Part shown: piece after piece, positions 2,121 to 14,610 of the stretch
Layout of the letters: each line of letters begins with the position of its first letter
Numbering within the stretch: the first letter of the stretch is position 1
Assembly: GCA_965202625.1 (NCBI GenBank)
Contig: CBDBBI010000010.1
Coordinates: forward strand, 2,208,001-2,272,000
Origin: a bacterium
Lineage (GTDB): Bacteria > UBA8248
Length of the DNA stretch: 64,000 nucleotides
Direction: 5' to 3'
Notes under the pieces: generated by a model
What the model was told of the DNA's origin: nothing
Database searches by the model: none
The model's input: the letters and a program-made list of their open reading frames with translations, nothing else
Position numbers and translations under genes: made by a program

Positions 2121-2145
2121 ATAAATCCATAACTTAGATGCCAAT

Positions 2146-2475
2146 CGTCGGGGACGAGCTTCAACCCCTGGCGCCATCGCTCGACAACAGCGTCCTGGTG
2201 AGGAAGACGAAGTCGCAACGCCTGCCAAGGCCGCTCAAGCCGAAGCGATTCCATGGAACCGTGCAGATCGACGCCACGCGCGTTGGGACGCGGATGCGAG
2301 CAAGATCGCGGATGAGGTTATTGCGCACCTCTCCGGTCTCGTTGGCGCCAAAGTTACTGTGACCCTGGAGATCGACGCGGAGATCCCGTCGGGCGCACCC
2401 GACCAGGTCGTTCGCACGGTTACGGAGAACGGGCGGATCTTGAAGTTCACGAGCCAAGGCTTCGAGGAGGAATAG
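2146..2475 (+). pseudogene. C-terminal remnant of a DUF499-family ATPase
   Basis: Across a frameshift near 2288-2293 it reads KRFHGTVQIDATRVG/DASKIADEVIAHLSGLVGAKVTVTLEIDAEIPSGAPDQVVRTVTENGRILKFTSQGFEEE*, which I recognise as the DUF499 C-terminus; 5' limit approximate. Confidence 0.75.
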
Positions 2476-2539
2476 GCCGCATGTCGACATTTTGCTTTCT
2501 GAAATGCCGCCGGCAGGAGTTTCTGTGGAGCCAAGATCG

Positions 2540-2917
2540 ATGACGGACGATAGCCAACAAGCAGATCCCGCAACGCTGCCGAAATCGCTGCTAGACTTTG
2601 TCGTGGATTCGTGGCATTTCGGGCGCTTGTGCGACCGGTTGCTGCGGAAGCTGGACGCGGGCGAACAAGGAAGGTATCGAGGCCAGTTTCGTTGGTTTCA
2701 GAGAAAACTCGAGGACTCCCTCACGGACGCCGGGATGCGGATTGTCAACGTCGAAGGACACCCATTCGATATGGGGATGGCTGCGACACCCCTCAATATC
2801 AAGGAGTTTGGATCTGAGGACGCGCTGGTCGTCGATCAGATGCTCGAACCAATAATTATGGGCCCGGAGGGCGTAGTCCGATTAGGCACGGTCACGCTCA
2901 GGAAGGTGGAGTCATGA
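2540..2917 (+). CDS. GrpE-like protein (short, divergent)
   Basis: Helical N-half, then G-I-VEGHPFD...VVDQMLEPIIM..EGVVRLGTVTL resembling the GrpE beta-head; GGAG RBS at 2527; ATGA overlap with the Hsp70 gene. Confidence 0.65.
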   Translation: MTDDSQQADPATLPKSLLDFVVDSWHFGRLCDRLLRKLDAGEQGRYRGQFRWFQRKLEDSLTDAGMRIVNVEGHPFDMGMAATPLNIKEFGSEDALVVDQMLEPIIMGPEGVVRLGTVTLRKVES

Positions 2918-5412
2918 ATAACTATGTTGGTATTGACCTGGGTACGACGAACAGTGCGATCTGTTCATACGACGGCGACGAGACCCGTATCTGGAAAAGC
3001 CCCGAGCAGAACGATGTGACGCCATCGGTGATCTACATGGACCGGCGGGGAAACAAGTACGTAGGTAAACGGGCCTATGACTCGGCACCCCACAGCCCGG
3101 ACAACGCCGCAATGCTATTCAAACGCCTGATGGGCACGAGTACGCCCATTAAGCTATCAGCGGTCGATATCACAATGAGCCCAGAGGAATGTTCTTCCGA
3201 GATTCTTCGGGTGCTATATGGCTACCTACCGGAGGAACTTCGAAACGATTCGGACGTTGGGACCGTTATCACGGTGCCTGCCGCCTTCAATCAGATGCAG
3301 AAGAACGCCACGATGCAGGCGGCAGAGCTGGCCGGAATCGGCCGGGTCGCACTGATGCAAGAGCCCGTTGCGGCGGTGATGAGCGTCATGAAGGCGCGCA
3401 ATGCGGACGGCATCTTTGTTGTCTACGACCTTGGAGGCGGCACGCTTGACGTTGCGCTTGCAGAGAGCATTGGGGGGCGAATTAACCTTCTTGCGCATGG
3501 TGGCATAGCGATGTGCGGCGGAAGGGATTTCGACCGTTTTCTCCTCGATAGCGTCATCAAACCTTGGCTATTCAAGAATTTTGATCTCCCTGAAGATATT
3601 TCGACCGACTCGACCTATAAACCCTTGCTTCGATTGGCAGCTTGGGCAGCCGAACGCGCCAAGATTGAACTGTCGGCGCGCAAAGAGGCGATCATCAGTC
3701 TGTCCGAGACTGAGGCGCGCGTTCGAGACCAATCCAATCAGGAGATCTACATCGATATTCCGCTGGATCGGAGCGCCCTGGACGAATTGATCAATGAGAA
3801 GGTTGGCGAATCAATCGAGGCCGCACGGGAGGCGCTTGCCAAAGCTGGATGGAGTCCTCACGACGTCGAGCGGGTCGTTTTCGTTGGCGGTCCCACGAAC
3901 TACAAGCCGCTGCGAGACAAAGTGTCGTTCGAGCTTGGGATATCTGCGAGCACCGAAGTCAATCCGATGACGGCCGTTGCTGAAGGCGCTGCTCTTTTTG
4001 CCGAATCTATTGAGTGGGGTTCAGAGAATCGCAGTCGTAAGAGCAATCGCGGAAGGTTAGCATCGAGCGGACAACTCGATCTGTCCTTCAATTACACCGC
4101 ACGCACGCCGGATACTCGGGCGAAGATCGTCGTGCAGGTTGGCGGTCAGGTGATGCCAGGTGCGGAGTTCCAGGTGGACAGTCTGGATACTGGTTGGACC
4201 TCTGGCCGATTGCCGCTGAGCAATGGCGCCGCCGTCGACGTATCACTCTCGAAGAGCGGAGAAAACGGGTTCAAAGTCTTTGTTTTCGATGCGGCTGGCG
4301 GCCCGTTGCCGTTGACGCTCGAACAGGACAAGATTGCGATCACGAGGACTGCGGCTACGGTCGATGCTATCCCGGCCTCGCACTCCATAGGCATTGAAGT
4401 GCTGGAGAAGCTCGGTGGTACACCCACTATCGAATGGCTTGTCCGGGCGGGAGACCAGTTACCGAAGAAGGGAAAGCGAGTTTTCAAGGCGGGCGAGTCG
4501 TTGAAGGCCGGTAGCACTGGTGCGCTCAATTTCAAATTGCTTGAGGGCGAGAGCGACGTGCCAGCCGACAATCGCTTTATCGGGCTTCTAAAGATCACGG
4601 GCAGCGACTTCGACGATGGGGTGATCCCGGCCGGAGCGGACCTCCAGTGCGATTTCGAAATGCTTGATTCCGGAAACATAGTGCTCGAGGTGTCCGTTCC
4701 GAGCATCCGTGGAACGTTTCATTCCGGTCGGAACTTCTACTCGCGCCAAAAAGGCCAGATGGACTTCAGTAGCGAATCCGCGCGTATCAGTAAAGAGGGA
4801 GAACGGACACTTCAGCGCCTCGACGACATCGCCGAAGTCATAGACGACCCCAAACTCGAGCAGGCGCACAGGAAGCTGACTTTGGCATCACAACTCAATG
4901 CGGATGAGCCGGATACCGAGCGCGCCCAAGAAGCGATGGAGGGAGTCGTTGAAGTGCGTCGTCTGTTGGCGAAGTTGCGAAAAGAGAACCTTAAGAAGAT
5001 TCGGCCGATGGAGCTTGACAGTGCTACTGAATTCTTCAATGAGCACATTCGTAAATTCGCGCGCCCGAGCGAGAAAAACGCGTTCGATAATCTGGTGCGG
5101 ACCGCTCAGCGCGCTATTGAACGAAAAGACAAGGACTTTGAGAGCCATCTGGAGGAACTCAAACGCACGAACTTCGAAATCCTGTGGCGGCAAGACTGGT
5201 TCGTCGTGCGGAAGTTCCAGTGGATGGCTGATTCACCACACCACTTCTCTGACCCGGTTCGATTCAAGGAATTCGTTTCAATGGGCCTGAATTCACTCCA
5301 GGCTGACGATATTGACTCGCTGCGGCAGATCGTCGGGCGCCTTGAACATATCCGGATTGATACGGGAGCGGATACGGACATGCTCGACATCGCCAACATC
5401 ATCCGAGGCTAG
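2914..5412 (+). CDS. Divergent Hsp70-family protein (832 aa), not housekeeping DnaK
   Basis: GIDLGTTNS, TVPAAF, EPVAA, YDLGGGTLD, GGRDFD, AERAKIELS, VGG, NPMTAVAEGAA motifs; long atypical C-terminal half. Confidence 0.93.
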   Translation: MNNYVGIDLGTTNSAICSYDGDETRIWKSPEQNDVTPSVIYMDRRGNKYVGKRAYDSAPHSPDNAAMLFKRLMGTSTPIKLSAVDITMSPEECSSEILRVLYGYLPEELRNDSDVGTVITVPAAFNQMQKNATMQAAELAGIGRVALMQEPVAAVMSVMKARNADGIFVVYDLGGGTLDVALAESIGGRINLLAHGGIAMCGGRDFDRFLLDSVIKPWLFKNFDLPEDISTDSTYKPLLRLAAWAAERAKIELSARKEAIISLSETEARVRDQSNQEIYIDIPLDRSALDELINEKVGESIEAAREALAKAGWSPHDVERVVFVGGPTNYKPLRDKVSFELGISASTEVNPMTAVAEGAALFAESIEWGSENRSRKSNRGRLASSGQLDLSFNYTARTPDTRAKIVVQVGGQVMPGAEFQVDSLDTGWTSGRLPLSNGAAVDVSLSKSGENGFKVFVFDAAGGPLPLTLEQDKIAITRTAATVDAIPASHSIGIEVLEKLGGTPTIEWLVRAGDQLPKKGKRVFKAGESLKAGSTGALNFKLLEGESDVPADNRFIGLLKITGSDFDDGVIPAGADLQCDFEMLDSGNIVLEVSVPSIRGTFHSGRNFYSRQKGQMDFSSESARISKEGERTLQRLDDIAEVIDDPKLEQAHRKLTLASQLNADEPDTERAQEAMEGVVEVRRLLAKLRKENLKKIRPMELDSATEFFNEHIRKFARPSEKNAFDNLVRTAQRAIERKDKDFESHLEELKRTNFEILWRQDWFVVRKFQWMADSPHHFSDPVRFKEFVSMGLNSLQADDIDSLRQIVGRLEHIRIDTGADTDMLDIANIIRG

Positions 5413-5414
5413 CC

Positions 5415-6872
5415 ATGGCTCAAGAGCGCTGGTTTCCGGTAAAGCACGAGCTGTCAGGCCGGTCTAAGCTCGGTCGCCTTCTGCACTGCGGGGCGGACTG
5501 GCAGATCTACCGACTTGACCGTGAGAATTCGGTGTTGGTAGCGCGAAGCACTCTTGCCGACCGGTGGGTAGAAGCGGGTTTTTTGCCGGATACTGTTCTT
5601 GAGTTGTTCACGTTCGGCAAGGAGAGCTACAAGGCAATGGCGTCAGGGCCGGACCAGAGACTAGAGCCTGTCGCGGAAGGTGGTTCCCCGGACAGCAAAG
5701 CGGATGGGCTCTCTTTTGCGCTCAGTCTACGCGAAAGCCGAAAGATTGACGCCGAGGTTCCGCTGCATGACGCCGTATACGCGGAGCGCTACTCGCGGCT
5801 GCTCCCGACCTGGACCGTGTCGGAAGCAACCTCTGATGAGGAGGTTCTGGGACGATGGTTGACCGGCGGCGTATCCATTCCCGCGACCTCCTTTCGGCGC
5901 CTGTCCAGCCTGCTGGGGTGGCTTGACAAGAAGGACGTTCACGACCTCGTTGAGGCAGCAGGATTTTCGGCGCCGCTGGATTCAGGCGGGTCGCTGACGA
6001 AAGAGAGGCCGAAGCGCGGAAAAACAAAGCCTGAAAGCGAGAAGGCTGCAACGCCTCGGACGCTGACTGAAGGAGACTCAGGTGAGCGTCCGCAAATGCG
6101 ACAGTTCCAGCTTTCGGGGCGCCCGGACCTGGAGGCGTTCTTCAACGAGCACGTTATCGACATCATCGAAAACACGGAGCGGTACAAGGCGCTGGGGATC
6201 GAGTTCCCGACGGCCATCGTCTTGCACGGACCGCCGGGATGCGGAAAGACATTCGCTGTGGAGCGGCTCGTCGAGTATCTCGATTGGCCGATCTTTTATG
6301 TCGACTCTAACAGTGTCAGCAGTCCATACATTCACGAAACCAGCCGCAAGGTAAGCGAGGTGTTCGATAAGGCAATGGACGCATCCCCATCGATGATCGT
6401 GATCGATGAAATGGAGTCATACCTGTCGGACCGGCAAATCCATGAATCTACCGGCCTTCACCACGTCGAAGAAGTTGCCGAGTTCCTTCGCCGTATTCCG
6501 GAGGCGAACAAGCGCGGCGTCCTAGTGATTGGCATGACCAATCGGCTAGAGATGATCGACTCGGCCATTCTTCGACGTGGTCGATTTGACCATATTGTTG
6601 AGGTGGGCATGCCATCCGCCACTGAAGTTTCGAGCTTGATTGACTCACTGCTGGTCAAGGTTCCGGTAGAAGGCGCAATTGACACCAAGGATGTGGTGGA
6701 GGCATTGACCGGTAGGGCGTTATCGGACACTGTGTTCGTTGTGCGGGAGGCCGCGCGGCTCGCGGCGCGCGCCGGGAAGAACGCTCTGGACGACGAGTTT
6801 TTGCGGGCAGCGCTCGCGAGTCTTCCCCCGGCCGAGCCGAAGAAGCGATCGATCGGTTTCATTCAGGATTAG
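5415..6872 (+). CDS. AAA+ ATPase (classical AAA clade) with an uncharacterised N-terminal domain
   Basis: Walker A GPPGCGKT, Walker B IVIDEME, SRH TNRLEMIDSAILRRGRFD, C-terminal RSIGF. Confidence 0.92.
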   Translation: MAQERWFPVKHELSGRSKLGRLLHCGADWQIYRLDRENSVLVARSTLADRWVEAGFLPDTVLELFTFGKESYKAMASGPDQRLEPVAEGGSPDSKADGLSFALSLRESRKIDAEVPLHDAVYAERYSRLLPTWTVSEATSDEEVLGRWLTGGVSIPATSFRRLSSLLGWLDKKDVHDLVEAAGFSAPLDSGGSLTKERPKRGKTKPESEKAATPRTLTEGDSGERPQMRQFQLSGRPDLEAFFNEHVIDIIENTERYKALGIEFPTAIVLHGPPGCGKTFAVERLVEYLDWPIFYVDSNSVSSPYIHETSRKVSEVFDKAMDASPSMIVIDEMESYLSDRQIHESTGLHHVEEVAEFLRRIPEANKRGVLVIGMTNRLEMIDSAILRRGRFDHIVEVGMPSATEVSSLIDSLLVKVPVEGAIDTKDVVEALTGRALSDTVFVVREAARLAARAGKNALDDEFLRAALASLPPAEPKKRSIGFIQD

Positions 6873-6875
6873 GCC

Positions 6876-8537
6876 GTGGAGCTGCTAAAGAATCCATTTT
6901 TCGTCCTTGGTGCCACGATGCGAGATGACCGGCGCCGCATCATGGAACTGGCCGAAGAGAAAAGTCTGCTCTCTGACGAGAGCTCGGTTCGTGATGCCAG
7001 AGCGACCCTTACTAATCCGAGAAGGCGCCTCGCAGCAGAGGTGGGTTGGCTGCCGGGGCTCGGCCCGAAGCGAATTACAGAGACGTTGTTTGTTCTAGAA
7101 AAAGACCCTATCAAGGTCCGCACTCAGGGAAATTTGCCGGCCCTCGCACTTGCCAATCTTTTAGCTGATGGCTTGGTGCGCGCCGCTGCGAAGCTGCCAC
7201 TCGACGAGGTTGCGAAATGGATCGTTCAACTTGCCGAGGCCGAGGCGTATGACGACCTCGAAATCGAGCTAACGGTCATGTTGTTGAACAAGGAACGTTC
7301 GGTGGCTGGCTTCCCCGATATTTCAGATCTCCAGAATGTAGAGGAAGAGCTTCGGGCTCGGCGCCGGTACTACTGCCAGGCGATAAAGGATGCTCTCGAC
7401 CAGTTGCCTGCTACATCTCTCGTGGAGGTCGTAACACGGGCGGTTGATCAGGCGACCGCCAACGGCTCAAAGCACGCTCCGATTCTGATTGACGATTTGG
7501 CGGATAGTTTTGCACTTGAGGCCCAGGGTTTTCTTGAAATGGAGACGAAGAATATCGCGGGGCTTGTGCAGGGAGTACGAAGCGCGGCCGAGGGCGAGAA
7601 AGGCGAGAGATATATCGGTGGCCTTGTCGGACAGCTAGAAAAAGTGCTCAAGAACTGGGACACGGTGGTTCAGCCGATCCAAGTGAGTGCCCAGAGCCGG
7701 GGCATGAGGCACGATCCCAGCCATGAGGTTGCGCGCGAGATTAGAAGTCTCGCGGTGGACCTGTTCAACGAGCATGGCCTCCTCGATCTTTCCAAGCGAC
7801 TAACGGCACTCCAGCAGGAGGTGTTTGCCGAGGTTGACAGGGTAGTGGAACAGTTGGAGAAGGATGCCTCCGCGCTGGATGAGATTGCCGAGCAGAGGAG
7901 TCAGTTTCTCGCAGACATGGAGACTCGAGCTGAGTCCTGGAAACGCGAAGTCACCTACGAAGCCGACGTTGGTGTGATGTTCAAGGATAAGCTGCGTATC
8001 TCACCGGCCGGGGTCCTGTGGAAAGGAACGAAGATTCCACTGGAAGATATCAATCGAGTGAGATGGGGCGGTACCCGGCATTCCGTCAACGGTATTCCAA
8101 CTGGTACGACGTACAACATCTTCGTTGGCGCCGCGAGGGGCGGGACCACTATCAATCTGAGAAAAGAGCATATCTACTCGGAGTTTGTAGGCCGCCTCTG
8201 GAAGACGGCGGGTGTGCGCCTCCTAACGGAGATGCTCGAGGGGCTGAAGGCCGGCAAGCGATATAGGTTCGGAACAGCCGTCATTACTGATGATGGTGTT
8301 GAGCTGGAAAGGCGCCATCTCTTCGCAGCCAATGAACGGGTTCTCTGCCCGTGGACGGAACTGGTCATCGGCAACAGAGGCGGTACGTTCTACATCGCCA
8401 AGAAGGATGAGAAGAAGGTAGCGGTCGAGTTGCCTTATCAGGATATGGACAACGTCCACATCCTCGAGGCTGCGATGCGCGTTTTCTGGAAGAACGCCAG
8501 CCCCAGGCTGAGCGATCTGCTAAACAAGACGCACTAA
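6876..8537 (+). CDS. Hypothetical protein: N-terminal J-domain-like region (no HPD), helical core, C-terminal PH-like beta domains
   Basis: NPFFVLG...I and ARATLTNPRRR resemble J-domain helices I/II and III/IV; GTG start 3 nt after the AAA stop. Confidence 0.65.
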   Translation: MELLKNPFFVLGATMRDDRRRIMELAEEKSLLSDESSVRDARATLTNPRRRLAAEVGWLPGLGPKRITETLFVLEKDPIKVRTQGNLPALALANLLADGLVRAAAKLPLDEVAKWIVQLAEAEAYDDLEIELTVMLLNKERSVAGFPDISDLQNVEEELRARRRYYCQAIKDALDQLPATSLVEVVTRAVDQATANGSKHAPILIDDLADSFALEAQGFLEMETKNIAGLVQGVRSAAEGEKGERYIGGLVGQLEKVLKNWDTVVQPIQVSAQSRGMRHDPSHEVAREIRSLAVDLFNEHGLLDLSKRLTALQQEVFAEVDRVVEQLEKDASALDEIAEQRSQFLADMETRAESWKREVTYEADVGVMFKDKLRISPAGVLWKGTKIPLEDINRVRWGGTRHSVNGIPTGTTYNIFVGAARGGTTINLRKEHIYSEFVGRLWKTAGVRLLTEMLEGLKAGKRYRFGTAVITDDGVELERRHLFAANERVLCPWTELVIGNRGGTFYIAKKDEKKVAVELPYQDMDNVHILEAAMRVFWKNASPRLSDLLNKTH

Positions 8538-9752
8538 GTGGCAATTGGCGTGAGAGGATACAATGAGCGACGAGAAGGAAAAAAAGGGTTCTCTGGGCTC
8601 TCGTCTCTTGCCTCCGACGTTGAGGAAGTCGCGGCAGACACACCGCGCCAAAAGGATCAAACGGAAAGACGCGCTGCGCAACCGCAGAGACAGAGCACCG
8701 GATCCTCCACGCATAGTTCAGCAGCACAGACGAAGCCCTCACATTCTCAACGGCCCGAGCCGGAGGAGGTGGCTTCAGGTACATCCCGAGCCCCTACCTC
8801 CGGATCTTCTGGCGCAAAGTGGTTCTGGGGTCTGGTCGGGGTTGGTGTGTTGATCTGGCTGTTCAACGCTGCTCAAGAGGACAGCAGCAGTCCGAGCCGT
8901 GGTCGCTCGTATACCCAACCCACCCCTACGCCTAGTTACACGCCGCCGGTGTCACCGGCGCAGCAACCGGGGCTCGATTTTTCGCAGCCACCTGTAGGCC
9001 AGAACAAAGTGCTGTCCGTCGCGCAAATACGATGGTGCCTTCGGGAGGAGATTCGGATTGAAGTCTTGCGACCTCTGCCGACGACGAACTCGCAGATAGA
9101 CCAGTTCAACGCCGTCGTCGCTGACTACAACAACCGATGCGGGAACTACCGTTACCGTGGAGGAACGTTGACGCGCGCACGACGAGAAGTCGAACGTGTG
9201 AGAGCGCAGATCGTTGCGAGCGTCGCGCCGGCGCAGCCTCGGCCGGTTCAGCAACAGTCACAATTAGCACTGGACGTGCAGAATGCACTGACCGCGTTGG
9301 GGTACGAACCGGGGCCTGCTGACGGCTTGTATGGCGCCAGAACCAGGTCGGCGATCCAGTCCTTCCAGCGGGACGTCGGACTCGCCGCTGACGGGCAAGT
9401 GACAGAGGCACTGCTAGAGCGCCTTCGGCTAGAGGTTGTCTCGCGTCGATCACGAGGCACATCGGCGACCACTGGCGGTGTCACGCCACCGAGTACGGCC
9501 ACACGCTCGAAGGGCGAGCCAAACGCGTACTTTACTAGGAACTCACACCAGGACGACGTACTTCGATTGCAGGGGACACCATCGGATATCACGCGCTACG
9601 ATGCCTTGGGATACGAGACGTGGTATTTCGGCCGCAGCACGGTGAACATCGATTCTCGTACGCGGCGGGTGCTCGAGTGGGACAACAAACCAGGCAGTCA
9701 GGTTACCTCGTCTACGGCGTTTACACGGAACTCGCACGCGGACGAAGACTAA
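8538..9752 (+). CDS. Single-pass membrane protein with a peptidoglycan-binding domain and a truncated C-terminal repeat
   Basis: TM WFWGLVGVGVLIWLF; PG_binding_1 pattern VQNALTALGYEPGPADGLYGARTRSAIQSFQRDVGLAADGQV; repeat FTRNSHQDDV / FTRNSHADED*. Confidence 0.85.
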   Translation: MAIGVRGYNERREGKKGFSGLSSLASDVEEVAADTPRQKDQTERRAAQPQRQSTGSSTHSSAAQTKPSHSQRPEPEEVASGTSRAPTSGSSGAKWFWGLVGVGVLIWLFNAAQEDSSSPSRGRSYTQPTPTPSYTPPVSPAQQPGLDFSQPPVGQNKVLSVAQIRWCLREEIRIEVLRPLPTTNSQIDQFNAVVADYNNRCGNYRYRGGTLTRARREVERVRAQIVASVAPAQPRPVQQQSQLALDVQNALTALGYEPGPADGLYGARTRSAIQSFQRDVGLAADGQVTEALLERLRLEVVSRRSRGTSATTGGVTPPSTATRSKGEPNAYFTRNSHQDDVLRLQGTPSDITRYDALGYETWYFGRSTVNIDSRTRRVLEWDNKPGSQVTSSTAFTRNSHADED

Positions 9753-9829
9753 ACGCGCGAGAGGATGGCGTTCGAATTAGACGCGATCTGGACACGGTAC
9801 CTTTTTAACTTATTGAAAAATAAGGAAAC

Positions 9830-9860
9830 ACCGGGGGTTCGAATCCCTCCCTCTCCGCCA
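9830..9860 (+). repeat. attR-like 31-bp direct repeat of the tRNA-Ser 3' end
   Basis: Identical to 2090-2120; no D-arm or anticodon arm upstream. Confidence 0.95.
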
Positions 9861-10278
9861 TTCGGATTTCAGGAAGCGAAGATCTGCTGGAGCGGCTCTC
9901 CCGTTGGATCCTTTCCGTGCGCGGTTGCGCGCGCCCTTCCCCCTTGGGGAAGGATTTTCCGCTTTTCATTCAAGCAGAAGCGTCTCACCGCCCGGGGGTC
10001 GTTCGACAGATCTAAGGATAAGAATTTCAGGGTTGCCCATGTGCGCCCGATGCACATCTCATATTGCTCCCTCCCAGAATGAAATGAAATCCCAGAAGCA
10101 TTCGAGAAATAAATCAGAAATTCAGAATTAACGCTTGCGAAACGAACAATATATGTATCGCCCATATCATGGATGTAGTCATGGGGTGGCGGCGTTTACT
10201 TTGTTTGAATCTTCATCTGTATTGGCCCACTAATTCCCCTAAAACCGAGATACTCGTTTTAACGAAGGAGATGGCCCA

Positions 10279-11451
10279 ATGAAGGAAAATTTGTCTCATG
10301 ACAGGCGGTTCAGGCGCCGTGATTTTCTGAAAATGGGAGCAAGCGCGGCTGGCGCGGGGTTGTTGCCACTCCTGAAATATTTGCCCGCGGAGGCCGCCAC
10401 GGGCCGCGGCATGCTCGTGGTCGTCATTGGCAACGGCCCCAACGGCATGGACATTCACAGAAAAGGAACAAATCGCCCAAGCTATCAAGTTGCCGTGAAC
10501 CTCTATGATCGTTTGGTTACCTATGGAAGAAAGAAACTCACAGACGGGAACGTCATGTACGATTATCAGAAGATTGAACCGGAGCTGGCTGAATCCTGGG
10601 CGTTCGCCCCGGACGGCATGGCCGTCACCTTCAAGATTCGCCAGGATGCCAAGTTCCACGACGGAAAACCCGTCACCGCTCATGACGTGAAATGGTCTTT
10701 CGACCGGGCGGTTTTCCAGCCGTCCAGATGAAGGCAGGTTCGCTTGTTCGCCCCGATCAGTTCATCGTCGTTGATGACTATACTTTCAAGATCAAATTTA
10801 TCCGCAAGAGCAAGCTCACATTGCCCGACCTCGGCGTTCCCGTTCCCATCATTATGAACTCGGTGGTCGCCAAAGCAAAAGCTACAAAGAGCGACCCGTG
10901 GGCGACGGAATACTTGCACAGGAACCCGCAGGGAAGCGGCGCATTCAAGTTGCAGCAATGGAAACCCAGACAGCATACAGTTTGCATTCGCAACGATGCC
11001 TGGAAATCGGGCCCCCTGCCTGGCGTGAAGCGGGTGATCATTCGGGAAGTGGCGTCGGCCTCCACGCGTCGCGCCCTGTTGTTGCGAGGAGATGCCGATG
11101 TGTCTCTTGATCTCCCGCCGAAGGACACCAAGGAACTTACGAACAACAAAAAGATCAAGATCGCTGGTGTTCCCCTGGGCCTATCAGCCGAAGCGCCTTT
11201 TCAACTCGATGAACTACAACACCCCGATGCTGAACAAACTTGTGGACGAAACCCTGCACATGCCGGTGGGCAGCCCCGGCTATGCGGAGCGCGTCAAAGC
11301 TTTCATCAAAATCGCTTTCGAGGAAGTGCCCCTCATTCCGCTCTGGCAACCTTATCTGGATGTCGCGATGCAAAAGAACATAGAGGGGTACGAATATTGG
11401 TTTCACCGTCAGCTTGACGTGAGGTCGTTCACGAAATTGCGTAGAGCCTAG
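10279..11451 (+). pseudogene. Peptide/nickel ABC transporter substrate-binding protein (family 5, Tat signal), disrupted
   Basis: RRRDFLK Tat motif and FHDGKPVTAHDVKWSF; split over three frames; jumps from IAGVP to a C-terminal segment near 11175, implying a large internal deletion. Confidence 0.85.
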
Positions 11452-11500
11452 AGGTTTGGGGCAAGTACGTCGCAACATGAGACAGCGCGTCTCTTGAAGG

Positions 11501-13228
11501 GTGGACTATGAGATGAGAGGCAATCCTTTGCTCCTGATCGGCCGGTGCTTCCTCCAGGCGGCACCGGTCGTGATGGGCATTATCTTGGTGACGTTCATTC
11601 TGACGCGCGCTTTGCCTGGCGATCCTGCGGTATTCTTCGCTGGTCCCGCGGCGGATGAGAAATCCATCGCCGACATACGCGCCTCGCTCGGATTCGACAA
11701 GAGTTGGCCCGAGCAGTTTTGGCTCTACCTGCAGGGTTTGTCGTGTGGAGACTTGGGTAAATCCATCAGCACGGGTCAGCCGGTTCTGGAGGAACTCGCC
11801 ACGCGGTTGCCAGCTTCCTTGGAACTTACGCTCACGAGCCTATTGCTAGCCATCGCCATACCTCTGGGGGTGCTGGCGGCCACGCGGCCCAACTCATTTG
11901 TCGATCATCTCTGCCGGCTCGTCGTTACCATCGGTGTTTCGCTGCCCACTTTCTTTACCGGCCTGTTTCTAGTCTATGTCTTCTATTTTCTTCTGGGGTT
12001 CTCGCCCGCCCCTATCGGACGACTCAGCATCATTCATCTCGCTCCCGAGCATCTCACAGGCTTCTACCTCGTTGACAGCCTCATCGCGGGTGATTTCGAG
12101 GTCTTTCGCGCCGCGCTTTCGCAGATGATTCTTCCCGCCTCGACGTTGGCTATTTTCGCTTTGGCTCCGATTACACGCATGACGCGGGCCCGCGATGCTG
12201 GGGGTTTTATCGAGCGACTTCGTACGCACGGCGCGCGCGAGCGGCTTGTCGCGCCGTTCCATCCTCTGGATATACGCCTTTCAGAACGCCATCCTTCCCG
12301 GCCTCACTACGTTGGGAATGGTATTCTCTTTTTTGCTTGGAGCGAACGTTTTGGTGGAACAGGTCTTCGCTTGGCCCGGAATCGGCTCCTTCGCCATTGA
12401 GGCGCTTATCACTTCGGACTACGCTGTGGTGCAGGGCTTTGTTCTGACGATGGCGTTGATGTACTTGCTCCTCAACCTGGCGATTGACGTCCTCTATACA
12501 GCCATCGACCCGCGCGCCAGCGACATCGCCAACGCTCTAAAGCCGCCCTCGTGGGTTCATTTGTTCGGCACGGACAACCTGGGACGAGACGTTTTCAGTC
12601 GCGTCATTACGGCCACGCGGCTCGACTTGGCGATATCCGTGGCGGCTGTTTCGCTTTCTTTTGTCGCGGGAAGCGTTGCCGGTGCTTGCGCGGGTTACTT
12701 CGGCGGCGCAACGGGCAAGCTCATCGGTCGGCTCACCGACACCATCATGGCGTTTCCCCTGTTTGTGCTGGCCATGGGCATTGTATCCGCCCTGGGGAAT
12801 ACAATTGAAAACATCGTCTATACGACAGCCGTCATCAACTTTCCCTTCTACGCCCGCGTGGCGCGGGCTGAGACGAGCTCGCGCGCGAGGCGGGCTTCGT
12901 GGAGGCGGCGCGCCTCTCGGGGAAATGGACACGAACGGGTTCTTTTCTTCCACATGTGGCCCAACATCATGCCGCCGATGATGGTGCAGATATCGCTGAA
13001 TATGGGTTACGCGATACTGAACGCCGCGGGTCTTTCTTCATCGGCCTCGGCGTCCGGCCCCCGACCCCTGAGTGGGGGATCATGGTGGCCGAGGGGGCCA
13101 AGTTCATCGTCTCGGGCGAGTGGTGGCTCGCCATCTTTCCCGGAGCCGCTCTGATGCTCGCCGTGTTGTGCTTCAACCTTCTGGGCGATGGTCTCCGAGA
13201 CCTGAGCGGCCCGAGAATGCGAGCCTGA
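11501..13228 (+). pseudogene. DppB/DppC-type permeases, frameshifted and fused by deletion
   Basis: PGDPA, FAWPGIG, IDPR joined directly to ASDIANALKPPS..HLFGTDNLGRD; several frameshifts. Confidence 0.85.
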
Positions 13229-14610
13229 TGGAGTCCCCCATTCCTCTCTTGGTCGTCAACGACCTCTCGCTTGAGTTCCGCACGCGCACCGGCATTGTCA
13301 AGGCACTGGAAAACGTGAGCTTCGAGGTTGAAAAAGGGCAGACGGTTGGCGTGGTTGGCGAGAGCGGATCGGGCAAGTCCGTTATGTCTTACGCCATTAT
13401 GGATATCTCCGATCCGGCGGCGAAAATCACCTCGGGTCAGGTTGTTTTTGGAGGCGTTTCTTTGCTTGGGAAATCCGGAAGCGAACTGGAAGAGATGCGA
13501 GGACGCGAGATAGCGATGATCTTTCAGAGTCCAAGAACGGCGCTGAACCCCATCTGAACCATTGGCAGACAACTCGAGGACGTCATTTATCGCCATAGCA
13601 GCTTTCGCGGCTGACAGATTCGTGTGCGCGCGATCGACCTGCTCAACCAGGTGTGCATCCCTGATCCGGAAAAACGCTATAATGCTTATCCATCTGAGAT
13701 TTCTGGTGGTATGTGTCAGCGCGTGATGATAGCGATCGCAATCTCTTCGGACCCTTGGCTCCTCATTGCGGACGAACCTGTAACCGGTCTGGACGTCACG
13801 ACCCAGGCGTTGATCATGGACCTTGTCAGTGACGCCGCGCGTGAACGCAACATGGCCACCATTCTCGCACTCGATGGACACGTCGTCGAGGTTGCCGATA
13901 CCGAGCGCCTGTTCATGCGCCCAAGGCATCCCTACACGGCGAAACTGATTCGCGCCACGCCGAACACAAACGGAGACATGACGGAGCTTTCCTCAAAAAA
14001 TTTCCTATCAGCCAAGGCGGGGCGCTTCGCAGGGCTTGGAGCGCTTTGCGGGGAATGGGGACGCAAAGGGAAGGCGAGACGGACTATCTCCACGCCGTGG
14101 ACGAAGTGTCCTTTTCAATCAAAGCAGGGGAGAGCGTCGGCCTCGTCGGCGAGTCAGGTTGCGGGAAATCTACACTCGCCCGTTTAATCGCCCGCCTGCA
14201 AGATCCCACGTCGGGCGATATTGTTTTTGAGGGGAGAAACATAGGGAGGATTCCGTCGACTCTTCTGCCAACGGGTTCTGGTGATGTACCTCGGCAAGAT
14301 CGTAGAGGCTGGCCCTACAGGGGAAATTTTGCGCCGCCCGCGTCACCCTTATACACAAGCGCTCCTCTCCGCTATACCTGTTGTTGACGCGACCGAGCAC
14401 ACCAAACGGGTCCGACTGACCGGCGAGGCGATGAGTCCCATCAATCCTTCCCCGCGCATCTGTCGGTTTTATAGCCGTTGCCCGCAGAGGGAGGAGAAAT
14501 GTAAAAAAGAGATGCCCACGCTCATGTCCTATTCTCACGGAATCGAGGCCGCCTGCCACTTTCCATTGGAGAGAAGGGAGAGTGCCGGAATACCGGCGGC
14601 CACTTCGTGA
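13228..14610 (+). pseudogene. DppD/DppF-type ABC ATPases, disrupted
   Basis: GESGSGKS and GESGCGKS Walker A motifs, SGGMCQR, ADEP; in-frame TGAs at 13555 and 13612; missing ITHD switch segment; C-terminal CRFYSRCP..C..ACH. Confidence 0.85.

Follow-up and report, generated by a model that had tools for sequence, protein, structure and literature searches.

In a 64,000-nt stretch of the genome of a bacterium of the lineage UBA8248 (GenBank assembly GCA_965202625.1, contig CBDBBI010000010.1, forward-strand positions 2,208,001 to 2,272,000; hereafter the window, numbered from its first letter), we analysed a five-gene operon, g1 to g5, which encodes an atypical Hsp70 together with putative partner proteins and lies on a small genomic island bounded by tRNA-Ser sequence. 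The island and its genes are laid out as follows.

2029-2120, + strand: tRNA-Ser(CGA), found by ARAGORN; integration target
2090-2120, + strand: left direct repeat, the 3' 31 nt of tRNA-Ser(CGA)
2299-2472, + strand: remnant of a Swt1-HEPN/DUF499-type gene between the tRNA and g1; C-terminal ~58 aa, N-terminal part absent
2540-2917, + strand: g1, 125 aa; a TTG at 2492 is also open (141 aa)
2914-5412, + strand: g2, 832 aa, Hsp70
5415-6872, + strand: g3, 485 aa, AAA+ ATPase
6876-8537, + strand: g4, 553 aa, adaptor
8538-9752, + strand: g5, 404 aa, predicted membrane protein
9830-9860, + strand: right direct repeat, attR-like, a perfect 31-nt copy of 2090-2120; end of the island

An earlier note on this DNA had described five co-oriented genes that fill almost the whole of a tRNA-Ser island, and the coordinates of the open reading frames (ORFs) bear this out: g1 and g2 share an ATGA overlap (2914-2917), the later gaps are 2, 3 and 0 nt, and the operon accounts for 7213 bp (93%) of the 7740-bp island (2121-9860) marked off by the 31-nt repeats. 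Two matches to the 31-nt tRNA-Ser end were reached in 0/100 shuffles, and such a repeated tRNA 3' end at the opposite boundary identifies the element as a tRNA-integrated genomic island; neither the ORF list nor Pfam places an integrase inside it, its content being the remnant and g1-g5. The DUF499 remnant of the earlier note is real as well, since 2299-2472 matches the C-termini of proteins annotated as Swt1 family HEPN / DUF499 in 29 plasmid records (tblastn; best 71% identity, E 9e-18), while Pfam gave 0 hits on the 91-aa remnant translation.

The Hsp70 encoded by g2 is divided into a nucleotide-binding domain (NBD), a substrate-binding domain (SBD) and two additional regions, one of which resembles an immunoglobulin (Ig) fold.

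aa 5-364, nt 2926-4005, + strand: NBD; Pfam HSP70, E 2.8e-56
aa ~379-480, nt 4048-4353, + strand: Ig-like insert between NBD and SBD; weak match by VIA, Z 7-8.3
aa ~481-693, nt 4354-4992, + strand: SBD-beta and lid; structure match of the model
aa 694-832, + strand: extra helical bundles in the model, ~140 residues after the lid

Residues D8, G10, T11, T12, K70, E150, D172, G174-T177 and G325-P327 are invariant in 23/23 sequences. Beyond the NBD nothing was found by Pfam or by PDB sequence profiles, and the SBD was detected by structure: an AlphaFold model of aa 370-832, with a predicted local distance difference test score (pLDDT) of 81.9, matched in Foldseek the SBDs of DnaK (4r5i_A, E 1.2e-9) and HscA (1u00_A, E 2.4e-8) at probability 1.00, and VIA gave Z 11.4-12.5 for SBD-beta at a root-mean-square deviation (rmsd) of 2.5-3.4. 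Judged by its NBD motifs and by the modelled SBD and lid, g2 is a true chaperone-type Hsp70. It was rejected as a DnaK or HscA equivalog, its NCBIfam scores lying far under the cut-offs; against the DnaK equivalogs it reached 209 bits, compared with cut-offs of 822.55 (TIGR02350) and 648 (NF001413), and only the NBD was matched. The host genome encodes DnaK, a second Hsp70, GrpE and DnaJ elsewhere, and for this reason we regard the island Hsp70 as accessory and not housekeeping. Likewise, a canonical DnaK operon was rejected as the identity of the locus, given the host's own set elsewhere and the sub-cut-off scores and different architecture of g2. The C-terminus of g2 (nt ~5395-5409) reads ...NIIRG-COOH in the consensus of 23 sequences and is conserved. 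By analogy to the EEVD end of eukaryotic Hsp70, which is a partner-docking motif, the NIIRG terminus could serve in partner docking.

The small protein encoded by g1 comprises a helical portion and a beta domain. Pfam returned no match for the window copy, and the GrpE Pfam model weakly matches 6/27 members of the g1 family (best E 0.011, under the cut-off). Aligned by hhalign to 24 canonical GrpE proteins from relatives, g1 matched the C-terminal half of GrpE collinearly over 93 columns with a probability of 55.8% and E 1.1e-4, comparisons with unrelated alignments giving 0.1-0.3% as controls. Taken together, these comparisons give weak-to-moderate grounds for calling g1 a putative nucleotide-exchange factor, and the label GrpE-like is provisional.

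The adaptor encoded by g4 is built from a helical N-terminal module and a separate C-terminal part.

aa 1-57, nt 6876-7046, + strand: J-like domain, degenerate (hhalign)
aa 1-~345, to nt 7910, + strand: conserved helical N-module (family alignment)
aa 361-458 and 463-540, nt 7956-8495, + strand: tentative PH-like units (model)

In the model of g4 (pLDDT 89.9), a helical region (aa 1-359) is followed by two beta-plus-helix units, and the first four helices (aa 7-56) show the pattern of a J domain. A comparison with 17 J domains by hhalign gave a probability of 35.5% and P 3.9e-4, with controls at 0.1%, and placed D34 on the Asp of the His-Pro-Asp (HPD) motif. Within the g4 family D34 is present in at least 90% of members and positions 32-33 are variable, so that the His-Pro of HPD is not kept. 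Pfam found no hit on g4, DnaJ included; VIA returned generic helical-repeat matches with no J-domain entry among the 50 best listed; and Foldseek of the whole-g4 model against the PDB gave nothing at E <= 0.001, a search of low information for a long helical model. From its sequence, the N-terminus of g4 is J-like, and g4 is not a J-domain protein in the HPD sense; a J-like domain of this kind may tether or regulate the Hsp70 instead of stimulating it. The C-terminal units are tentatively PH-like, the model matching the PH-GRAM domain of MTMR6 with Z 8.5 and rmsd 2.9 over 75 aa, values near the noise range of the tool.

The remaining two genes encode the ATPase g3 and the envelope protein g5, with the following parts.

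g3, aa 1-~220, + strand: unique N-domain, relatives not detected
g3, aa 224-450, nt 6084-6764, + strand: AAA module; Pfam AAA at aa 268-398, E 4.4e-27
g5, aa 15-28, nt 8580-8621, + strand: predicted cytosolic motif KKGFSGLSSLASDV; G17, F18 and L24 invariant in 14/14 sequences
g5, aa 95-109, nt 8820-8864, + strand: hydrophobic segment read from the sequence; not flagged by a Kyte-Doolittle scan at threshold 1.6
g5, aa ~148-225, nt 8979-9212, + strand: conserved, predicted periplasmic domain with two Cys
g5, aa 246-296, nt 9273-9425, + strand: PG_binding_1; Pfam, E 7.3e-15
g5, after PG_binding_1, + strand: C-terminal repeat, its second copy cut short relative to the homologue in locus L006

The PDB chains closest to g3 are Afg2/VAT/p97 AAA modules (best E 3.6e-47), the p97 match covering chain residues 469-702. 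Walker A is GPPGCGKT in 14/16 sequences and GPSGCGKS or GPSGCGKT in the other two; Walker B has DE in 15/16 (EE in L005), and the sensor-1 TN, the RxGRFD arginines and the pore-loop Y are each present in 16/16. On these motifs g3 is a classic-clade (Cdc48/p97/Afg2 D2-like) AAA+ ATPase, and we infer that it forms a hexamer and threads its substrates. In PADLOC it gave only generic AAA-core matches, to IetA (partial, E 5.3e-26) and TRIP13. The predicted topology of g5 is that of a bitopic membrane protein. The earlier note had stated that the first four genes are uninterrupted beside decayed loci; this holds, g1-g4 being full length and the neighbouring ABC transporter operon at 10279-14600 frame-shifted, and we add that the 3' end of g5 is probably truncated in the window copy. 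The g5 homologues in L001, L003, L007, L008 and L025 also end soon past the periplasmic or peptidoglycan-binding domain. As to the GrpE-like / Hsp70 / AAA+ / J-like-PH / peptidoglycan-binding set named in the earlier note, the Hsp70, AAA+ and PG_binding_1 assignments are firm, and the GrpE-like, J-like and PH-like ones have weak profile or fold support; together with the conservation of the operon described below, the domain assignments uphold the description of a self-contained accessory Hsp70 module with exchange-factor-like and J-like partners, an unfoldase-type AAA+ protein and a membrane/cell-wall component.

To place the operon in a wider context, species-representative genomes were scanned with g2, which yielded 28 loci with g2 relatives at 45-84% identity. 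From the locus titles we take these to belong to the Acidobacteriota, Alpha-, Beta- and Gammaproteobacteria, Desulfobacterota, Nitrospirales, Poribacteria (8 loci) and Synergistaceae, and further to the Elusimicrobiaceae, Riflebacteria, Megasphaera and Acidimicrobiaceae, presumably about a dozen phyla in total. By tblastn, g1 lies next to g2 in 26/28 loci, both misses being at contig ends, and g4 is present in 27/28, the miss again at a contig end; g3 was found in 16/28 and g5 in 12/28, all 12 with g3. Distant plasmid versions, in which g2 is 33-35% identical, keep only the g4 N-module (g4N), g1 and g2. The invariant core thus consists of three genes (g4 N-module, g1 and g2), and the AAA+ protein and g5 mark one subfamily. 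The earlier note had treated the five-gene arrangement as the system: it is indeed conserved as an operon and, because this conservation extends across phyla, lies far beyond chance, but the five-gene form represents one subfamily of a family with a three-gene core. Measured against three homologues, the ratio of nonsynonymous to synonymous substitution rates (dN/dS) ranged from 0.03 to 0.10 in g1-g4 and was 0.21 in g5, with synonymous sites close to saturation. Of 1.84 billion cluster representatives, those belonging to the g1 family number 866 (at 50% identity) with E <= 1e-3 and 483 with E <= 1e-10. For g4, the family comprises 1613 clusters formed at 90% identity (E <= 1e-5); in the 120 clusters listed, every named member is annotated as 'hypothetical protein', and no Pfam domain occurs in any of them.

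Across all loci, g4 is conserved no further than its first ~345 residues, and its C-terminus differs by lineage, being PH-like in the window clade, made of helical repeats and a tail anchor in Poribacteria, and composed of transmembrane (TM) segments and extracellular repeats in L019 and L020. An additional gene in 3/28 loci encodes the g4 N-module joined to an Hsp70 NBD that has no SBD (L017:10621-13059, L023:10584-13001 and L026:8001-10385), and because this fusion exists we believe that the g4 N-module and the Hsp70 work together. The same three loci, all from Poribacteria, carry duplicated g4 paralogues with C-terminal tail anchors and are without the AAA+ gene and g5.

The distribution of the operon is that of a mobile element. 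Within the genus, g4 was found in 1/22 other genomes, and in 0/18 more distant relatives searched. The congener's copy (genome G012, locus L101) sits at another site, between two integrases and a TrwC relaxase, and only window positions 2539-9230 align to it, at 73% nucleotide identity; the same integrase/relaxase element also encodes a 774-aa protein with ankyrin repeats and a bacterial SH3 domain (L101:3928-6249). A tRNA gene (Glu, Arg or Ser-TGA) lies immediately upstream of the operon in 3 more loci; in L007, L018, L019 and L022 no tRNA-end repeats were found around the operon within the flanks examined. At least 80% of g2 is covered by 13 plasmid records. On Shewanella and Aeromonas plasmids the operon directly follows TnsA-B-C-D-E and is thereby Tn7-like cargo. 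On Polaromonas pPNAP01 it stands between Zorya (zorA, OmpA-family, EH-signature and SNF2 genes) and a helicase/AAA pair with BrxD, and on a Vibrio plasmid its neighbours are a helicase/PLD gene set, an integrase and a toxin-antitoxin pair. Three-gene forms are carried by plasmids of Sinorhizobium and Aminobacter, among others. Of the plasmid-borne three-gene forms, one lies by a restriction enzyme, Fic-VbhA and RelE/ParE, and another by an integrase, an AAA-helicase pair and a RES-domain gene. The whole operon is also found on 3 IMG/VR contigs, with HsdM and PRTase-CE, a phage tail protein and a UvrD-type helicase as neighbours. In view of this conservation and distribution we are highly confident that the cassette is a conserved, mobile and dedicated Hsp70 system; the system is real and apparently undescribed.

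Disrupted copies were also encountered. In L021, g2 and g3 (6033-9797 and 11454-14297) are each split by 1.4-1.5 kb of inserted DNA, and a frameshift or split affects g2 in L023, in L027 and on the Aeromonas plasmid (L066, 9995-12492). It is therefore worth asking whether the window copy is an inactive passenger, the remnant of a recently acquired island, a possibility that is compatible with any other reading of the family. The absence of an integrase, the 58-aa stub left of the upstream Swt1-HEPN/DUF499-type gene, the end of g5 inside a repeat, the decay of the adjacent chromosomal operon and the broken copies in L021, L023, L027 and the Aeromonas plasmid are all in line with it, as is the promoter scan, in which no likely site preceded g1 and the region contained 1 site where 3.2 were expected; the combined promoter and terminator scan gave nothing above chance, with a consensus that may not suit this organism. 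However, none of g1-g4 is shortened and every catalytic motif is preserved, and several g5 homologues end similarly early, so that the truncation need not inactivate the protein. On balance, we think it quite unlikely that the window copy is inactive.

What, then, does the cassette do? Its recurrence in many phyla, on plasmids, transposons and prophage-like contigs, suggests an undescribed, possibly anti-phage, system. Our preferred reading is that it is a mobile, self-contained, non-canonical Hsp70 machine and, most likely, a conflict (anti-phage or anti-mobile-element) system, to which we give an even chance; the conflict or defence role itself is plausible to the same degree and draws support from the mobility of the cassette and its proximity to defence genes. 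The earlier note had suggested a defence-island setting for the locus, and this is correct in part: the operon adjoins known defence genes in several replicons and a Swt1-HEPN/DUF499 remnant in the window, but many of its flanks are housekeeping. Our flank tallies cover 150/224 flank ORFs, taken from L001-L018, with hits not assigned to individual loci. In these flanks PADLOC found DpdF, MTase_II, PsyrT, MkoC, PDC-S01, AriA (three times) and RmrA (twice), in a scattered fashion.

Several observations weigh against a conflict role. Within the flanks, the commonest Pfam families are ABC_tran (6) and Proton_antipo_M (5), many flanks being housekeeping, and no integrase family is among the 25 flank families listed. 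Of 10 large neighbours only ~4 are conflict-related or mobile (AAA_27, LPD38, a helicase-REase and Fic), the others being Lon, a radical SAM protein, a WD40 protein, a choice-of-anchor protein and two TctA-SNase fusions. None of 50,697 phage records matched g4. PADLOC-DB v2.0.0 returned 0 families for g1, g2, g4 and g5, which sets the cassette apart from known systems yet supplies no positive evidence of defence. No effector domain (nuclease, protease, NADase or pore-former) was recognised by Pfam in the five proteins, and the window copy itself may be impaired through its truncated g5 end. With no such effector and with so many housekeeping flanks, the suggestion of the earlier note that the cassette could sense phage adsorption or injection is a speculative one. 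The partner assignments are a further concern: beside the sub-threshold GrpE match of g1 and the low J-domain probability of g4, PDB profile searches with the g1 and g4 alignments returned no GrpE and no J-domain entry. In canonical systems the His-Pro of HPD is needed for Hsp70 stimulation, and g4 has lost it.

The main rival to a conflict role is that the cassette is a mobile stress-tolerance or envelope-proteostasis module, in which the Hsp70 team and a disaggregase-like AAA+ partner would maintain or repair membrane and envelope proteins under heat, metal or envelope stress, much as has been suggested for HscC and its tail-anchored J proteins, and spread by helping hosts in harsh niches. 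Mobile chaperone islands that confer heat resistance exist. The recognisable parts of the cassette are all of chaperone type (an Hsp70 with a true SBD, a GrpE-like protein and a classic AAA+), the effector domain is absent, many flanks are housekeeping, and many of the loci come, by their titles, from symbiont-type metagenome genomes; in addition, the membrane-directed partners recall DjlB and DjlC of HscC (PMC8215388). A general repair function is harder to reconcile with the recurrence of the operon directly beside defence systems and as Tn7-like cargo, with the degenerate J-like domain, with the patchy occurrence in the genus (1/22) and above all with the highly variable and modular g4 C-terminus and the varying end of g5, features that one expects of a conflict system and seldom sees in general proteostasis. 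We consider such a module somewhat unlikely.

The mobility of the cassette also raises the question of whether it serves the elements that carry it, as a membrane pulling or assembly motor for insertion, translocation, assembly of an envelope structure, exclusion or maintenance. The analogy is to mitochondrial Hsp70 import motors, in which a membrane-tethered pair of J and J-like proteins acts with a GrpE-type exchange factor, and the cassette similarly has a GrpE-like protein and a J-like domain without HPD beside its Hsp70, as well as a membrane tether. It is carried by plasmids, a TrwC-relaxase element and Tn7-like transposons, and the AAA+ protein accompanies the membrane-spanning partner, g3 being present in 12/12 g5 loci. 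However, the operon is tied to no constant element type and to no conjugation or secretion genes, occurring on tRNA islands, transposons, plasmids and prophage-like contigs alike; three-gene forms exist without g5 and AAA+, and no candidate translocated substrate is encoded. Such a motor would thus be a very unlikely explanation.

In order to relate the conflict reading to what has been described, we compared the cassette with known chaperone and defence systems. That the arrangement is not a named system, as the earlier note supposed, agrees with the absence of a match in PADLOC v2, NCBIfam r20, Pfam, PHROGs and the literature searched. NCBIfam r20 and PHROGs contained nothing for g1 and g4, and PHROGs gave only generic Hsp70-NBD, AAA and endolysin peptidoglycan-binding matches on g2, g3 and g5. 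No published description of the gene set was found in a search that was thin on subscription journals and supplements, such as those of Kaur et al. (2020) and recent defence screens. Like DnaK-DnaJ-GrpE, the cassette has an Hsp70 with ATPase motifs and SBD-beta/lid, a partner that aligns to the C-terminal half of GrpE and a partner with J-like helices. In contrast to that system, the Hsp70 here has 832 aa with an Ig-like insert and ~140 extra helical residues, the GrpE-like protein is only 125 aa long, g4 is without His-Pro, Zn-finger and DnaJ C-terminal domains, and the cassette is accessory and mobile.

Among chaperone systems, the closest functional analogy is to HscC with DjlB/DjlC. HscC of E. 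coli is described as a specialised, sporadic Hsp70 of 550-580 aa that is thought to be GrpE-independent and presumed to act at the plasma membrane, with DjlB and DjlC as nearby-encoded, tail-anchored partners that have true J domains (PMC8215388). The cassette shares with this system a specialised and sporadic Hsp70, dedicated co-chaperones that are directed to the membrane and encoded close by, and presumed membrane action. It differs in the 832-aa length of g2, in the GrpE-like gene adjacent in 26/28 loci and in tail anchors that occur only in some g4 paralogues; moreover, HscC is without an associated AAA+ or peptidoglycan-binding partner, both of which are present in the window cassette. 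An HscC/DjlBC-type identity was accordingly rejected on length, the adjacent GrpE-like gene and the missing His-Pro of HPD in g4.

The nearest described conflict theme is a subset of the GAP1-N2 GTPase-centric systems, the only one found with HSP70, GrpE and a J-domain protein together. The subset has HSP70 and GrpE, sometimes an NBD-only Hsp70, and an FNIII protein fused to DnaJ; it is predicted to act near the membrane, has cell-wall-binding domains and occurs mainly in actinobacteria and firmicutes, and GAP1-N2 systems are defined by GAP1 and an FNIII-repeat protein accompanied by one or two TRAFAC GTPases (Kaur et al., 2020; PMC7159879). The NBD-only Hsp70 is comparable to our NBD-g4N fusions and the cell-wall-binding domains to g5, whereas the window cassette is found mainly in Gram-negative phyla and Poribacteria. 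Pfam found no GTPase, GAP1 or FNIII domain in g1-g5, and no GTPase family is among the 25 listed flank families, a flank search that was not exhaustive. Without GTPase, GAP1 and FNIII in the five proteins, GAP1-N2 identity was rejected.

Other candidates share individual parts with the cassette. The AAA core of g3 resembles IetA (PADLOC E 5.3e-26), but g3 scores higher against Cdc48/Afg2/VAT PDB chains (E 3.6e-47); IetAS was rejected as an identity, the NCBIfam IteA score being 78.3 bits against a cut-off of 510 and no IetS-type protease domain being present in the five proteins. Like Cdc48/p97/VAT, g3 has the AAA fold, Walker A/B, sensor 1, arginine fingers and an aromatic pore loop, which fits unfolding or extraction; unlike Cdc48, which has two AAA domains, it has a single one, and its N-domain is without detectable relatives. 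Hsp70-type NBD/SBD units also occur in predicted or shown defence systems: CnuD of CoCoNuT is Hsp70-like, tied to McrBC-type GTPase/nuclease genes and endowed with degenerate Walker-A-like motifs (PMC11090510), and DnaK-like proteins are fused to EACC1-protease modules (PMC12642450). The window cassette differs from both in that it has no McrBC or protease-effector module and its ATPase motifs are invariant. CoCoNuT identity was rejected on the same grounds, with no McrBC and with invariant rather than degenerate ATPase motifs. Bacterial derivatives of Hsp70 besides DnaK, HscA and HscC have hardly been studied. According to a 2026 review, bacterial DnaK derivatives are still largely unexplored (PMC13580251).

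How a conflict system of this composition could work is suggested by the strict linkage of the Hsp70, the small GrpE-like protein and the adaptor N-module, and by the presence of membrane or envelope modules on g5 or on g4 variants (TM segments, tail anchor). We propose that g4 would dock the Hsp70 by its J-like end and place it at the inner membrane face or at a target by its variable end, and that g1, as exchange factor, would recycle the Hsp70. The SBD of the Hsp70, with the AAA+ protein where present, might then grip a specific peptide, with ATP-driven remodelling or extraction as the output. The target could be an invader's protein or else a cytosolic tail, either that of g5 or that of g4 variants with TM segments, and the invariant basic-hydrophobic tail of g5 would be the obvious candidate peptide. 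The periplasmic or extracellular parts, together with peptidoglycan binding, could couple remodelling to the state of the envelope, and infection would be blocked or end abortively. Seen more broadly, the family might represent a new class of immune system driven by an Hsp70 cycle, with no nuclease, NADase or pore-former at its centre, in which the core, its J-like adaptor fitted with exchangeable target or sensor modules, senses an invader or envelope signal and by remodelling its target neutralises the invader or sets off abortive infection and, in one subfamily, a Cdc48-like segregase pulls a peptidoglycan-tethered sensor by its KKGFSGLSSL tail; we put this forward tentatively, as a possibility that falls short of an even chance. 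The tail-pulling mechanism specifically appears doubtful to us.

Were the cassette to prove a defence system, remodelling of proteins by an Hsp70 machine would join the known mechanisms of immunity, and J-like domains without HPD would gain a tractable model; were it a stress module, mobile determinants of envelope proteostasis would have a new member. Should Cdc48-like tail-pulling prove true, bacteria would have a counterpart of the chaperone/segregase extraction that takes place at eukaryotic membranes. In either case the family is clearly delimited and of considerable size, comes with an exchange factor (putatively g1) and a J-like adaptor without the canonical HPD, and accompanies defence genes on transposons, plasmids and prophage-like contigs. 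Cultured carriers include Polaromonas naphthalenivorans CJ2 (pPNAP01), Geomonas azotofigens and Megasphaera hominis, as well as the plasmid-bearing Vibrio rumoiensis, Shewanella and Aeromonas.

A number of further observations concern genes in the vicinity of the operon. Membrane proteins in which TctA is fused to a staphylococcal nuclease (SNase) and an Excalibur domain are encoded near the operon in L002 (15078-17183) and L003 (2327-4723), and a stand-alone SNase ORF (L101:12324-13148) and a TctC gene lie near the congener's copy; a TctA/SNase gene may be a co-traveller of the cassette. In the Tn7-like cargo of L066 (17572-21379) and on the IMG/VR contig L104 (10004-13148), downstream of the operon comes the same series of small hypothetical genes, the last of which encodes an RDD-family membrane protein. 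One gene of this series weakly resembles g5 (E 9.5e-17), and these small genes may be further members of the system of that subfamily. In the window, a 105-aa ORF at 9765-10082 spans the right repeat and has a sub-threshold Pfam match to GCD14 (E 1.8e-4, 21.7 bits against a cut-off of 26); it is probably no gene. Downstream of the island, the ABC transporter operon at 10279-14600 is of peptide/nickel type, with a binding protein, two permeases and two ATPases, and its many overlapping frame-shifted ORFs mark it as a decayed locus.

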